The translations under genes were made by a program, and so were the position numbers. 64,000 nt of DNA from Escherichia coli (GTDB lineage Bacteria; Pseudomonadota; Gammaproteobacteria; Enterobacterales; Enterobacteriaceae): NCBI RefSeq assembly GCF_030013595.1, contig NZ_CP122768.1. One strand, given 5' to 3'. Positions 59,489-63,744 of this stretch are shown piece after piece. The notes beneath the pieces are model-generated. The model was not told where the DNA came from. It made no database searches and worked only from the letters and a program-made list of their open reading frames with translations. Position 1 is the stretch's first letter. Each line of letters opens with the position of its first letter.

Positions 59489-60947
59489 ATGTACTCGCTC
59501 AACCAACTAGTTGCCATCAACCACAAACGGCAATGGATTCTGATGGACACGGAAACCTGCTTACCGTTGTTGTACCCACTCAGATATCACATCGATCATT
59601 TGGCTTTTCGTTCATTGTCCACGCAGTCTGCTTCGCTGCAGGCCGTTAAGTTCTTTTACGAATTTTGGTTGCAGAAACACGGCGTCACGTTTTGCTATAG
59701 CTTCTATGCTTCTGGCCACAACCCGTGCATTGCTATTGAGGAAATGTCGGCATTTTCTCACTATCTGGAGAATGGTCGCGTAAGCCAATCAAATTTATTG
59801 GCATTCACTCCAGTCTCCACTTCCCATAGTTTTATCAACGCAGCGCGATTTCGTGCAGTAGCGCAGTTTATTGCTTTTTTGATTAACACGTATGTATCGC
59901 CGGTATATCGGGATGATTCTCCCAAAGCATTATCACTCCAGGCTTCCCGGTTACATACTCGCCTGCGCTTTTGTCGTGACAGTTATCGAGCGTTAACACC
60001 GGGAAAGCATTCTAACCATCGTCATATCCATCAGGGGTTTCAGAGTATGAACCGTGAAATGGTGATCAGTCTGTACACGATTATTGCTCCCTGCTCTAGC
60101 CAAAAATATAACCCATTAAATCCCTTCCCCACCAGAAACACCCAGTTTCGCAACTTTTTGATTATTCGCCTGTTACTGAATTATGGATTGCGAATAGGTG
60201 AATTATTGCTGTTGGAATGCAATTCTATAAAATCAAATATAAAAAAGGATAAGTTTAGTTTGATTGTAACTACAACTTGAATTTAGTCACTCTGCACCGT
60301 TTTATGTGTCCAGGTCGATTAACCAGGTCATCCTTAGTTTCAGTCCGCCAGATTATCAGGCCGCCGTAGCGCGTGGCGAAGCGGCTCTACCAATTATTAC
60401 GCCGACCGACTTGCGCCACAACGTGGGGCACTCACTGGCTATGCAAGGGGTCAGCGCCGAGGAAATCGCGCATATTCTGGGACATACCTCCCTTACTGTT
60501 GCCAAGTATTACATTTTGGCGACACCTGCGCTGGCACTGATTCGAGCCAAAGCGTTGGGTACCAATCCGGTATGGCAAAATATGGTAGCTATGATGTTGA
60601 CTGGTGAACTGACCTCTTCAACGAAATGGCAAGGCCAGCGCGTGGTCGGCATAATCGGTGATCAGTTGCATGATGGGATTGGTGGTTGCTCCAGAGATAA
60701 TGGCGACTGCCCGTTCAGTGAAGTACGCTGCTGCTACGGCTGCCTGTATTATCGCCCCTTTACTGATGGTGACCATCAGGCTGTGCTGGAGAGTGTAGTT
60801 AAAGAAGTCGATGAATTGATCTCCATTTCAGACAGTGTTGGTAACGCCCGCAATCCACTTATTTCCATCCATGAAACCACACAATTTGAAATTCAATCCG
60901 TGATTGCCCGTTGCCGCTTTCGTCAGGAAAAAGGCGGTGTGCGATGA
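59489..60947 (+). pseudogene. Tyrosine recombinase-like gene, split by a frameshift near 60270-60280
   Basis: Upstream part carries box I (NYGLRIGELLLL); downstream part carries LRHNVGHSLAMQGV and ILGHTSLTVAKYY (box II and the catalytic Tyr region). The frames overlap by about 10 nt; GAGG Shine-Dalgarno before ATG 59489. Confidence 0.6.
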
Positions 60948-63310
60948 AAAAATATTTTGCGCAGTTTCACGCCTTTATCACCGAGCAGCAAAGCTGGTTT
61001 GAACAGCATCTGGCGACAGACTTCGAGCAGTCATGGGATGATCCTGTCTGGGTCTGCGGCAGCAATGGTAGTGGCTGGTTACGTGGTAATGGCAAAAATA
61101 AATTACGCTTTGATGAAATCAGCCGTACCAAAGGTATTGAGGGGCGCCATGCAGTGGCAGAAGACTATGCCCGGTTTATGAAAGCCCTGCTGGTACTAGT
61201 GTATCGGAGGCGAAATCGTAGCATATCCCCAGCGGTGGCTGTGGCAACGCTGATGATTTTGAAGCGCTGGTACCACTCGCTATTTGAGATGACCGGGCAA
61301 ACTCACCCAGTGTATCTAACCACCGGGGTAATTCAACGGTCAATGGATAGCCTCAGCGCAGCTTCGTCTCCAGGGGATCCCAATACCGCCAATTACAAAG
61401 GACGCTGTGTCAGTCTGCAAAAAATGGTTAATCACCAGTCATTCACGCTGGTGACACTGCAATATGTGTCTGATGCACAATATACCAATCAAACCAACCT
61501 GACCCGCAAAGCCCGGGAAACCATGGCTCTGAAACAGCAGGACAAGCTGACAGATACCACTACCGATGGTGAAGAGGCGTTGATTACCATTCGCGGTTTT
61601 CTGAACATCGTCGAATTAATCCAGCGGGTGGAAAGTGATGCTGAGAAAATTGCGTTAAATTGCCTGTTGTTATTGGTTATCACCGGCTTTCGCTCCATTG
61701 AAGCGTTTAATCTCAGACAGGATGCGCTGTTTAAACGCCAGATTGATGATCCGGCAATCCGCAAGCGGTTTCAGGACAAGGGATTACCCGATTATTTCCT
61801 TGGTATCCGTTATATTGGTGTCAAAGGTGCTGGGGAGCGAACGCATTGGGTAGAACCGCTGGCTGTACCGCTGGTCGAGAGTATATTCAGTTCCGTTAAA
61901 ATATTGACCGCACCAAAACGCAGTCATCTGACCTATCTACGGGAGAAATCTTTTACTGATTACCTGCCACAGGCCATCAGCGCCCTACCCGGTGAACAAG
62001 TTGAACTGGATGATGTGGTGACGTACATCACACAAACCGCCTCAAGTTTTCGTGGCCGGGCAGGACAACGAGACAAAACATCCAAAGCCCTCAACAAACG
62101 AGGTGTGCTGCCCGTTCTAGAAATGCCAGGGCCGAAAAACAGCAAATCTATCTATTATTCCAAGACTGACCTTAATCATTACATCAAGACCGAATTTGGC
62201 CTGACGGATGCCAACGAACCCTGTACGCACGCCTGGATGGAAAATGGCAAACGTTACGAAGTTAACTACGAAGACCTGTTATTTCTACATGAGAAGGGTT
62301 CGCTGGCATTAAAGCGCACACTGGCTTTGCTGGCTATACCGATACCATTCACTAACACACTTATGAATAAATTTTTAGGCAATGTTGAGCCTGATGGATC
62401 AGTATTCAGCAAATATCAATTACTGGAAGAGAATGGTACCCCCACCCGGATGCGTACCCACATTCCCCGGCACAACATCAATACCTTTCTTGCTATTGCG
62501 GATATCTCTGACCACTTACAGGCAATGTTGATGGGGCGAGTGGACATCACGCAGAATCAGCACTATCAACATCTGGCGCTTGCAGAACGGCGAAAAGCAG
62601 CCTCGTTGGTGCCCTTGCAGCCGATATCGACAGCACTAACTGCCGCGCCCTCTTCGTCCTCCATTGCTACGCCACTGGAAATCGTCAAACGGACCGGCCA
62701 ACTGGCGGTCACGAAACACATGACTTTGGACAATACCATCAAAGCCAACCTGCATACTTTTGACGATCGGGATGATGTAGCCAGGTTTGTCGAGGCGTCA
62801 TTTGCTGACGGCCTCTTTGAAGATGTTGCTGCCGCCTTTGAAGAAATCCGCGACGCAGAAGGACCAGAGCAAGCCTCTGCCATGGTGGCAAGACATGCCG
62901 TGATGTATCCGCTGAAATTTGGCTCCTGTATGCGGGAAGTTAACCTCTGGGGATGTCCTTATCGACTGAAATGCCAGAGTGCTGCCTTTTGTGAACATTT
63001 CACGCTGACAGGCCGGATAGATGAGCTACCCAATCTGATTGCCAAAAAACAGGCGTTACAGCAAGCACATTCGAAGTTGACCCAACTTACACAACATCAG
63101 CCTGACTACCAGACCAGACTGGCCGACATCGAACGACGGTTACAGCAACTCGAGGCAATACAAGCACAATGGCAGCGTCGTGCCAAGACTCAACAACTGG
63201 TTGCTGCGGAGAGTGTGTTGTCTGGTGGAGTAATCACCGAGGGCAAAGTCCGTACACTGGCCCAGCTTTTTGCACTTGAATACCAACAATTGATGCAGGA
63301 GAACGACTGA
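60944..63310 (+). CDS. Large tyrosine recombinase-like protein (about 788 aa) with Cys-rich, coiled-coil C-terminal extension
   Basis: Start ATG overlaps the upstream stop (ATGA). Motifs VITGFRSIEAF (box I-like Arg), THIPRHNINTFLAI (H-x-x-R-H), QNQHYQHL (candidate Tyr); C-terminal CPYRLKCQSAAFCEH and a Q/L-rich coiled coil. Confidence 0.6.
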   Translation: MKKYFAQFHAFITEQQSWFEQHLATDFEQSWDDPVWVCGSNGSGWLRGNGKNKLRFDEISRTKGIEGRHAVAEDYARFMKALLVLVYRRRNRSISPAVAVATLMILKRWYHSLFEMTGQTHPVYLTTGVIQRSMDSLSAASSPGDPNTANYKGRCVSLQKMVNHQSFTLVTLQYVSDAQYTNQTNLTRKARETMALKQQDKLTDTTTDGEEALITIRGFLNIVELIQRVESDAEKIALNCLLLLVITGFRSIEAFNLRQDALFKRQIDDPAIRKRFQDKGLPDYFLGIRYIGVKGAGERTHWVEPLAVPLVESIFSSVKILTAPKRSHLTYLREKSFTDYLPQAISALPGEQVELDDVVTYITQTASSFRGRAGQRDKTSKALNKRGVLPVLEMPGPKNSKSIYYSKTDLNHYIKTEFGLTDANEPCTHAWMENGKRYEVNYEDLLFLHEKGSLALKRTLALLAIPIPFTNTLMNKFLGNVEPDGSVFSKYQLLEENGTPTRMRTHIPRHNINTFLAIADISDHLQAMLMGRVDITQNQHYQHLALAERRKAASLVPLQPISTALTAAPSSSSIATPLEIVKRTGQLAVTKHMTLDNTIKANLHTFDDRDDVARFVEASFADGLFEDVAAAFEEIRDAEGPEQASAMVARHAVMYPLKFGSCMREVNLWGCPYRLKCQSAAFCEHFTLTGRIDELPNLIAKKQALQQAHSKLTQLTQHQPDYQTRLADIERRLQQLEAIQAQWQRRAKTQQLVAAESVLSGGVITEGKVRTLAQLFALEYQQLMQEND

Positions 63311-63744
63311 TGCGCGGCAAGGAACTGGACACACTGATCGAGCACGAATTACAACTGATGCTGGTTGAAGGCTTTGACAAGTCCCCTATTTCCGCCAAGG
63401 CCCTGCATATTCGGCTCAAGGCAAAAGGTATCGTTAACGGTGGTTTAAGTACGCTGAGCAGCCTTGAGCGAAAACGCCTAATTGCTGCCTATGTTGATCA
63501 GCAACTTGGCCCATTGAATCTACGCCCAAAAGAAAAACAGCAATACGTCAACCGCAAAACCCGTCAGGCCTTGCTGGCCAGAAACCAGCAGTTGCAGGCG
63601 GAAGTCAGTGAGCTGCGAGACCAACTGGCGCAGAATACCCTGTCGTTGATAGAAATTGTCAAAGCGGTAAAAATCAATACAGTTATTCCGGTGGAAAGTC
63701 TGTTGGCTAAACATGTAATTCGGGAGTTACACAAGTCGTTATAA
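63310..63744 (+). CDS. Small coiled-coil protein, third gene of the recombinase operon
   Basis: 144 aa; start overlaps the upstream stop (TGATG); central QQLQAEVSELRDQLAQ heptad-like region. Confidence 0.55.
   Translation: MRGKELDTLIEHELQLMLVEGFDKSPISAKALHIRLKAKGIVNGGLSTLSSLERKRLIAAYVDQQLGPLNLRPKEKQQYVNRKTRQALLARNQQLQAEVSELRDQLAQNTLSLIEIVKAVKINTVIPVESLLAKHVIRELHKSL

Follow-up and report, generated by a model that had tools for sequence, protein, structure and literature searches.

The window analysed here, a stretch of 64,000 nucleotides of Escherichia coli DNA, was found to end within a genomic island, and positions 59337-64000 are assigned with a probability of about 90% to the left end of a decayed GInt-type island (Tn6571 family) that was inserted site-specifically at TATGTTAAATCA. 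GInts are a known kind of element, and the island is a decayed new member at an already catalogued hotspot. The anatomy, empty site, repeats, deletion, homology and fold described below were demonstrated in this analysis, and the mechanism of recombination would follow that of the Pseudomonas element. Four open reading frames lie on the same strand: 59462/59489-60280, 60306-60947 in a different frame, 60944-63310 (788 aa) and 63310-63744 (144 aa). They had initially been read, from the sequence alone, as a three-gene module with a frameshifted first gene. This reading did not survive comparison with the intact operons that other E. coli strains carry at this site, in which four co-oriented, overlapping genes form the GInt layout ginABCD and encode proteins of 446/521/788/144, 484/516/788/144 or 466/516/788/144 amino acids. 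The window holds a remnant of such an operon, with ginA and ginB truncated and ginC and ginD intact.

The chromosome/island junction coincides with the attL core TATGTTAAATAG (59337-59348), and homology to the K-12 chromosome stops at position 59346. The hipA stop codon is located at 59242 and the module begins approximately 100 bp beyond it. K-12 contains a single copy of TATGTTAAATCA, which lies 104 bp past the end of hipA and represents the empty site. In EM18, which carries a complete island, TATGTTAAATCA is found on the left and TAAGTTAAATCA on the right, forming an imperfect 12-bp direct repeat, and for the island of E. coli 1303 the repeats and the K-12 comparison agree on the same insertion site. 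The ends of the element and its flanking repeats were thereby defined in EM18 against the empty site of K-12, while the window itself holds attL only. The closest genome is devoid of attR, and an IS adjoins a truncated ydeS. The sequence-only reading had proposed the integration module of a strain-specific mobile element that adjoins hipA and is absent from K-12; this part is borne out by the empty K-12 site and by the presence of ginC-ginD of the window type in 230 of 5426 complete E. coli genomes (~4%).

The left arm of the element and the ginA leader occupy 59349-59488 (plus strand), as judged by comparison with the arms of EM18. When the right arm of EM18 is reverse-complemented, it agrees with the left arm in register at 18 of 40 positions, and both arms have AGTTCATA in common at an offset of 17-24 from the core. 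The window matches 7 of the 8 positions of this motif at the same offset, which yields ACTTCATA (59365-59372) as a candidate recombinase-binding motif; from their sequence, the arm motifs may be sites at which the recombinases bind. A GAGG sequence at 59479-59482 precedes the ginA ATG by six nucleotides. Scans for promoters and terminators gave signals that did not exceed the shuffled expectation, and no promoter-like signal beyond chance was seen.

The first gene fragment, ginA' (59489-60280, plus strand), comprises 263 codons from the ATG at 59489. PGAP places the start at 59543, and the upstream start is backed by conservation with GinA of two intact operons (L007 and L017). The encoded fragment is 72% identical to residues 1-244 of EM18 GinA (446 aa). 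Its box I Arg (LNYGLRIGELL) is preserved, whereas the segments with the Lys, the H-x-x-R, the Trp and the Tyr are gone. In Pfam it matches Phage_integrase weakly and at model positions 17-52 only, and intact EM18 GinA matches the same family with an E-value of 1.3e-6. The second fragment, 'ginB (60279-60947, plus strand, approximately codons 294-516), is out of frame with ginA' and encodes a product 93% identical to residues 304-516 of L007 GinB and 81% identical to residues 305-513 of EM18 GinB. It retains the L-R-H ... G-H ... Y residues (LRHNVGHSLA...ILGHTSLTVAKYY) and a C-terminal Cys-rich segment and lacks the core-binding domain and the box I Arg. Its C-terminal part is matched by the NCBIfam model NF041502 integrase_1 (4e-17), and intact EM18 GinB is matched by Phage_integrase (Pfam, 2.2e-10).

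The two fragments meet at a deletion junction at 60277/60278. Homology to the intact operons begins exactly at 60277 and continues to 63803 or 64000 with 93-95% nucleotide identity to three of them (L007, L011 and L017); upstream of 60277 the alignment is to ginA only. Approximately 1.48-1.51 kb are missing, corresponding to the last ~200 codons of ginA and the first ~293 codons of ginB, and the TGA at 60278-60280 that ends ginA' was made by the junction. The presumed first gene of about 485 aa, obtained by fusing two frames, is instead composed of the 5' 263-272 codons of ginA and the last ~223 codons of ginB, and the supposed frameshift is a deletion that joins two recombinase genes. A sequencing or assembly frameshift near 60260-60290 in a single recombinase gene, which would leave three intact genes and a mobile element, agrees with the presence of two adjacent open reading frames in different frames that both carry recombinase motifs. 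It is nevertheless scarcely credible, as these frames match different genes that lie ~1.5 kb apart in intact operons, a fused product would have no segment between box I and box II, and two complete assemblies made independently have exactly this junction.

It is conceivable, though on balance doubted, that a deletion spanning two tandem GInts produced the ginA'-'ginB fusion; it would extend from ginA of the upstream element to ginB of the downstream one, with loss of the first element's cargo, in place of a 1.5-kb deletion within a single operon. The ginA' lineage was found in only 2 of the 5426 E. coli genomes and its protein is at most 74% identical to anything in a set of 5.8 billion protein clusters; from position 60277 on, common lineages match the sequence with 93-97% identity, the GC content rises at the junction from 0.43 to 0.51, and tandem GInt remnants occupy the same site in EM18. 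On the other hand, ginA usually diverges more than any other gene of the operon (EM18 and L007 are 56% identical in A, 66% in B, 88% in C and 95% in D), so that a ginA lineage absent from the sample is to be expected even where the rest of the operon is ordinary. No parent of either kind was found, and no intact parent of the window's ginA lineage was present in the complete E. coli genomes or in the 5.8-billion-cluster set.

The ATGA and TGATG stop/start overlaps described from the sequence were confirmed between 'ginB and ginC (60944-60947) and between ginC and ginD (63308-63312). The intact ginC gene (60944-63310, plus strand) encodes a protein of 788 aa with a tyrosine-recombinase fold, in which core-binding and catalytic domains with insertions are followed by a Cys4 segment and a C-terminal helical hairpin. 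The recombinase-like motifs that had been noted in this protein are real: R250 (TGFRSIE), K294, H506-x-x-R509-H510 and Y541 do not vary among 47 homologues, and every one of these sampled relatives, down to 16-18% identity, still has the Lys, the H-x-x-R, the Tyr and the Arg of box I. Arg532 is found at the position usually taken by His or Trp. Searches of PDB sequences with the GinC family profile gave no significant match; the best integrase, that of P2 (E 0.59, non-significant), was used for the register of the motifs and aligns in box I and box II. Pfam and NCBIfam contained nothing significant for either the 788-aa or the 144-aa protein, PHROGs returned a weak integrase match for GinC (3e-4), and a test for homology between the Cys-rich segments at the C-termini of GinB and GinC yielded negative, non-significant bit scores. 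GinC appears to retain a full candidate active site with Arg replacing the usual His/Trp, which conflicts with published descriptions of GinC, where the first Arg (Bardaji et al.) or the catalytic motif or tyrosine is absent. That GinC serves as a third active recombinase, or that ginC-ginD is a leftover pair retained for a function of its own, is considered unlikely. One possibility would be that ginC-ginD, after the loss of ginA and ginB, occupies or protects the attachment site or acts in trans on incoming GInts. The active-site-like residues of GinC provide a small lead on how three proteins with a recombinase fold cooperate.

The fourth gene, ginD (63310-63744, plus strand), is intact and encodes a helical protein of 144 aa, in which an N-terminal portion of three helices precedes a long helix of 50 residues (73-122). 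The AF2 model is all-helical (pLDDT 77), in line with the small coiled-coil-like protein originally described. A fold search of the PDB with GinD gave no significant match, the top, non-significant hit being a MerR-family regulator, and BLASTP detected no similarity to GinD of E. coli Sakai. The gene is 95-97% identical to the fourth gene of the intact operons and can be aligned with that of remote operons, for example through an RGKE/D...SPIS motif common with Chryseobacterium; all fourth-gene proteins occupy the same position and have a similar size of 130-151 aa. Just past ginD, a perfect 12-bp inverted repeat, ATTTCGCCGACA / TGTCGGCGAAAT (63760-63793), overlaps a site marked by the terminator scan (63783-63799) and is probably a terminator that separates ginD from the cargo gene facing it. 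The cargo starts with the 3' end of a gene for an MbcA/ParS/Xre-family antitoxin (63909-64000, minus strand) that is cut by the window end; this gene is annotated at positions 24670-24864 of locus L001, in a genome 100% identical over window positions 58871-64000. The cargo predicted to lie beyond position 64000 was indeed found in the closest genome, which carries toxin-antitoxin-like genes, an AAA ATPase with an ABC-three-component system, and further genes. The window strain is not identical to this closest complete genome.

By analogy with the Pseudomonas element, an intact ginABCD operon would provide two catalytic tyrosine recombinases (GinA and GinB), the recombinase-fold protein GinC and the small helical GinD, which together would act on the imperfect direct repeats at both ends of the island, recombining them so that a circular form is excised and re-inserted at an empty site. 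In the window, the ~1.5-kb deletion took away the catalytic half of GinA and the DNA-binding half of GinB together with its box I Arg and probably its Lys. GInts have been defined, and all four gin genes were found to be required for mobility in the one Pseudomonas GInt that was studied (PMC5385486); for this reason the window copy is most likely immobile. With only ginC and ginD intact, the island would no longer excise or integrate by itself, and with truncated ginA and ginB no excision is expected, although another GInt may complement it in trans. The suggestion that the element was immobilised thus probably holds, but through the ginA-ginB deletion. In practical terms, the island is best treated as a fixed remnant and not as an active element.

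The relationship to known GInts was assessed by sequence and profile comparisons. The operon ECs_3512-3509 of E. coli O157 Sakai, whose ginC-ginD are listed as GInt orthologues by Idola et al., is similar gene for gene, with identities of 28% for A, 24% for B (E 2e-7) and 27% for C (E 8e-9). The founding proteins of Pseudomonas stutzeri DSM4166 were compared as published fragments and not at full length. A GinA profile built from EM18, L007 and Sakai matched the P. stutzeri GinA fragment 181-420 with 84.2 bits (E 2e-27), including the unusual G-W-S...Y motif, and the 47-sequence GinC profile gave collinear matches to P. stutzeri GinC of 43.7 bits (fragment 61-180) and 33.0 bits (481-540). A three-sequence GinB profile matched the founding GinB fragment weakly (8.5 bits), in the box II/catalytic motif only. 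Remote GinC relatives obtained by cluster look-up came from Massilia, Chryseobacterium and an alphaproteobacterium, and the Pseudomonas prototype was absent from this look-up. The overlapping A-B-C-D order is kept in Massilia, in Chryseobacterium, where the operon adjoins ssb, which has been reported as a target of GInts, and in a metagenomic relative. GInts were reported in 7.5% of Escherichia replicons (PMC10214605), and the RefSeq protein and genome accessions of the locus had no match among the rows listed in the supplements of Idola et al.

Other recombinase modules were compared as well. A prophage remnant was rejected, as were the single frameshifted gene, Tn554, SE and RIT elements. 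The sequence-only reading had likened the layout to the tnpA-tnpB-tnpC module of Tn554, with a frameshifted first gene. Once the two fragments are counted as one gene the layout is indeed similar, and an ordinary and a large recombinase, a small helical protein and target specificity are general features common to Tn554, SEs and GInts (PMC10214605). The likeness is an analogy only, and a Tn554-like module is very improbable: intact relatives have four genes and not three, the lesion is a 1.5-kb deletion, and GinA and GinC have measurable homology to GInt proteins. The families are reported to lack detectable sequence similarity to one another (PMC10214605). No Tn554-type family in Pfam or NCBIfam matched the window proteins or the intact EM18 proteins, among which GinA and GinB are matched by Phage_integrase. 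A strand-biased circularizing integrative element (SE, intA-tfp-intB-srap) or a recombinase-in-trio (RIT) element was considered because the left end of SEs likewise carries four genes, among them those for two recombinases, a recombinase-fold protein and a small protein, and because three recombinases lie side by side in RITs (PMC10214605). Either assignment is highly unlikely. The Pfam-positive recombinases are first and second here, followed by the large Pfam-negative recombinase-fold protein and the small protein, as in GInts, whereas in SEs the non-catalytic Tfp comes second and the large recombinase third (PMC10214605); RITs have neither a small fourth gene nor a 788-aa member; the GinC profile matches P. 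stutzeri GinC; and the sole NCBIfam 'gamma-mobile-trio' match was to GmtY, with an E-value of 0.0019 and 17.5 bits against a cutoff of 340.

Identification as a GInt shows that the variable islands at the hipA-ydeT hotspot are GInts, some of them intact and others decayed depending on the strain. It explains how defence and addiction cargo reaches this locus and accounts for the label 'integrase, partial integrase, hypothetical, hypothetical' that the locus receives from automated annotation. The region between hipA and ydeT is defence-island hotspot #20 of E. coli, with an occupancy of 7.9% (Hochhauser et al. 2023, PMC10121019), and GInts are known to carry defence systems in E. coli (PMC10121019). 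Chromosomal location and occupancy by a minority of strains (7.9% there, ~4% here as counted by ginC-ginD) are in agreement, as are the defence systems, namely AVAST in 1303, a type I restriction-modification system in EM18 and the ABC-three-component system in the closest genome. In contrast, the one hotspot-20 row among those listed, that of E. coli 1303, is typed as lacking a recognised mobile element (PMC10121019), while the islands at this site are shown here to be GInts in various states of decay: a ginA-ginB deletion in the window, IS2 in place of ginC-ginD in 1303 and tandem remnants in EM18.

Compared with the known element families, Tn554 of staphylococci shares two different tyrosine recombinases, a small helical protein and site-specific insertion, but this Firmicutes element lacks anything equivalent to the large third protein with a recombinase fold (PMC10214605). 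SEs share four left-end genes, two of them for catalytic tyrosine recombinases, one for a recombinase-fold protein and one for a small helical protein, as well as target specificity and the lack of conjugation genes, and differ in gene order, in protein clusters separate from those of GInts and in imperfect terminal inverted repeats of 13-19 bp (PMC10214605). With GInts the island shares the overlapping four-gene operon at the left end followed by variable cargo rich in addiction and defence genes, the tyrosine recombinases GinA and GinB, the large recombinase-fold GinC, the small helical GinD, sequence homology for GinA and GinC, and site-specific insertion between imperfect direct repeats (10-17 nt in GInts, 12 nt here). 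It differs from them in that ginA is missing its 3' part and ginB its 5' part in the window copy, the target is the hipA-yneL intergenic site and not an ABC-transporter gene or ssb, the box I Arg missing in the GinC of Bardaji et al. is kept, and the relationship of its proteins to the Pseudomonas prototypes is no more than distant, with 24-28% identity to the Sakai GInt.

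A reading-frame scan downstream of the hipA stop codon at position 59242 identified four same-strand reading frames up to the end of the window: a 5' fragment of ginA (ginA', 59462/59489-60280, plus strand, as are the others), a 3' fragment of ginB in a different frame ('ginB, 60306-60947), ginC (60944-63310, 788 aa) and ginD (63310-63744, 144 aa). The ATGA (60944-60947) and TGATG (63308-63312) overlaps described in the sequence-only reading were recovered. Among 5426 complete E. coli genomes searched, two are identical to window 59240-64000, and in 63 others the counterpart of this region is approximately 1.5 kb longer and contains a four-gene module directly 3' of hipA. 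The intact modules encode proteins of 446, 521, 788 and 144 aa in strain EM18, 484, 516, 788 and 144 aa on the L007 contigs and 466, 516, 788 and 144 aa in MB06231. Protein alignment showed that the first reading frame of the window corresponds to residues 1-244 of intact gene 1 and the second to residues 304/305-513/516 of intact gene 2. Nucleotide homology to three intact operons (93-95%) begins exactly at 60277 and extends to the window end, and sequence to the left of this position aligns exclusively to gene 1. It is the junction that generates the TGA at 60278-60280, and ginA' and 'ginB are in different frames. The lesion is a deletion of approximately 1.48-1.51 kb between two different genes, not a frameshift within a single first gene as had been assumed. 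The NCBI pipeline annotates an identical genome with an integrase followed by a 'site-specific integrase, incomplete, missing N-terminus'.

An intact member of the window's ginA lineage was not found in the complete E. coli genomes and protein clusters searched. Among complete E. coli genomes the lineage of the ginA fragment is limited to the two identical genomes, and its best protein match reaches 74%, while ginB, ginC and ginD of the window are 93-97% identical to common lineages. The favoured explanation is the loss of 1.5 kb, by a simple deletion, from an ordinary operon whose ginA has not been sampled, because ginA is generally the most divergent gene (56% between lineages whose GinC proteins are 88% identical). 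A larger deletion that fused two tandem GInts (islands with a ginABCD operon) is the less likely alternative; tandem remnants do occur at the hipA site, as exemplified by a second 'ginC-ginD in EM18 that is 94.9% identical to the window. This truncated copy (EM18 contig L002, 37273-37943) is accompanied by its own cargo, a type I restriction-modification system, and lies inside the same att-flanked island. At the nucleotide level it is nearer to the window than is the intact upstream EM18 operon (87%), and the presence of both points to two GInts having accumulated in tandem at this site. Both ginC and ginD are full length, and given that the deletion was seen in only two apparently clonal pig isolates, a recent event is the simplest explanation.

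In a Pseudomonas GInt, the individual knockout of ginA, ginB, ginC or ginD was reported to abolish both circle formation and integration (PMC5385486). The GinA remaining in the window comprises only the N-terminal half with the box I Arg, and the remaining GinB only box II, the His, the Tyr and the C-terminal Cys-rich segment. As both recombinases are truncated, self-mobilisation of the island has probably been lost. The earlier suggestion of an immobilised element is probably right, with a deletion as the cause in place of the proposed frameshift.

Homology to K-12 stops at window position 59346, 104 bp past hipA, and in K-12 nothing is present between hipA and yneL/ydeT. In EM18, K-12 homology ends on the left at TATGTTAAATCA and resumes 27.7 kb further on at TAAGTTAAATCA. 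These two alignments overlap by 12 bp; the EM18 island therefore lies between imperfect 12-bp direct repeats of a sequence that K-12 carries once. The same insertion site is used in E. coli 1303, and the att sequence of the window is TATGTTAAATAG (59337-59348). The empty K-12 site and the ends defined via the EM18 repeat verified that a strain-specific element absent from K-12 was inserted. An attR sequence, of the form GTTAAATCA directly followed by TGTCTGAG, is not present in the only complete genomes carrying the 60277/60278 junction; their right end is gone and ISVsa5 abuts a truncated ydeS. The window's strain differs elsewhere from these genomes. Comparison of the inner 40 nt of the EM18 left end with the reverse complement of those of the right end gave 18/40 in-register matches, and both arms carry the 8-mer AGTTCATA at an identical offset, where the window contains ACTTCATA (59365-59372). 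Judged by sequence, these motifs are candidate recombinase-binding arms. A stretch of 62 nt in the left arm upstream of ginA (window 59375-59436; L015 6001-6062) is 95-97% identical on several large E. coli plasmids, e.g. pO111_1, where it is unannotated; an ISNCY-family transposase gene lies approximately 180 bp away, and a Shedu nuclease gene is nearby. The intergenic stretch between ginD and a convergent antitoxin gene includes a perfect 12-bp inverted repeat, the second one after ginD (AATTTCTCCAAC / GTTGGAGAAATT, 5-nt loop, window 63866-63894).

Several neighbouring genes also differ from related genomes. An internal deletion of approximately 512 bp was observed in hipA (58432-59242) in comparison with K-12 and the otherwise near-identical NZ_CM149870. 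Its junction (58871/58872) has a 2-bp overlap and shifts the frame, leaving ORFs 58375-58989 and 58865-59242; the island-adjacent toxin gene is therefore inactivated in the window's strain, and hipB (58148-58432) looks intact. The ECSE_1600-family autotransporter (52488-57955; the pseudogene yneO in K-12) consists of two ORFs that overlap (52488-56558 and 56555-57955), and in the closest complete genome (L001) it is annotated as one intact gene of 5421 bp, the alignment differing by a single indel. Window 43914-45073 (1160 bp) is absent from L001, in which the lsrB/lsrF region is reduced to a single 'substrate-binding domain-containing protein'; despite its identical gin region, L001 is therefore not the genome of the window's strain.

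Of the 5426 complete E. coli genomes, 230 carry ginC-ginD of the window type, mostly on the chromosome, and GInts have been reported in 7.5% of Escherichia replicons (Idola et al., PMC10214605). Hochhauser et al. (PMC10121019) catalogue hipA-ydeT as defence-island hotspot #20, with islands in 62 of 783 genomes, and report that GInts carry defence systems at several hotspots in E. coli; the hotspot-20 row of E. coli 1303 in their table is typed as having no mobile element. The 1303 island next to hipA starts with ginA-ginB, followed by an IS2 that replaces ginC-ginD and by cargo including an AVAST-type ATPase; islands at this site have thus decayed by more than one route.

The intact GinA and GinB products match Pfam Phage_integrase (1.3e-6 and 2.2e-10), and GinC has no significant match in Pfam or NCBIfam. 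A search of 1.84 billion proteins yielded 240 cluster representatives of GinC at E<=0.001. Across 47 aligned relatives, the most distant at 16-18% identity, the invariant residues are R250 (in TGFRSIE), E253, K294, H506, R509, H510, G531, R532, N538, Y541, G660, C662 and C671. In a profile match to P2 integrase that was not significant, GinC residues fall in register with the box I Arg (R250, window 61691-61693), the box II H-x-x-R and the nucleophile Tyr (Y541, window 62564-62566), with Arg532 at the usual His/Trp position. Beyond the catalytic domain, GinB and GinC also have similar segments rich in Cys, of the form G-x-C-x-R-x(4-7)-C-P-x(4-5)-C-x(2-5)-C (GinC residues ~660-683, window 62927-62992; GinB fragment 60690-60750). 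Within the GinC family each of the four Cys is either invariant or conserved in at least 90%, and a profile test of GinB-GinC homology in this segment was not significant. GinD is predicted to be all-helical (helices 3-20, 29-38, 51-69 and a long helix 73-122; pLDDT 77), without a significant PDB neighbour.

By definition, the left end of a GInt encodes two recombinases, a large recombinase-like protein and a small helical one, and the island has variable cargo and is bordered by imperfect direct repeats (Bardaji et al. 2017, PMC5385486). In its intact form, the window's module has this layout. Homology was tested against the P. stutzeri DSM4166 GinA, GinB and GinC fragments printed in Figure S1 of that paper. 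The GinC profile matched two fragments at collinear positions (43.7 and 33.0 bits), the small GinA profile gave 84.2 bits, including the unusual G-W-S...Y motif, and GinB gave only 8.5 bits. The O157 Sakai operon ECs_3512-3509 shows similarity between corresponding genes (A 28%, B 24%, C 27%), and its last two genes have been described as ginC-ginD orthologues (Idola et al., PMC10214605). Remote GinC relatives in Massilia, a metagenomic contig and Chryseobacterium share the four-gene arrangement. The Chryseobacterium artocarpi operon (L013 2962-8470), in which two ORFs (98 + 372 aa) are called for the second gene, immediately adjoins ssb, which several distantly related GInts have been reported to target. 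Other element types were rejected: the SE type (intA-tfp-intB-srap) has a different gene order and separate protein clusters, and RIT elements (three recombinases) have no fourth gene. The proposed Tn554-like three-gene module was likewise discarded, since Tn554 (tnpABC) has no third large protein and intact relatives of the window's module have four genes. GinC has been described as lacking the first Arg (PMC5385486) or, in another paper, a catalytic motif or tyrosine. Its relatives here retain the Tyr and, within a canonical TG(F/L)RxxE motif, the box I Arg, and GinC of this family has an apparently complete active site including this Arg; the mismatch may stem from differences between lineages or from an alignment problem in the earlier studies. 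This apparent active site is the only mildly unexpected point of the element, which is otherwise of a known kind, a decayed GInt at a known hotspot.
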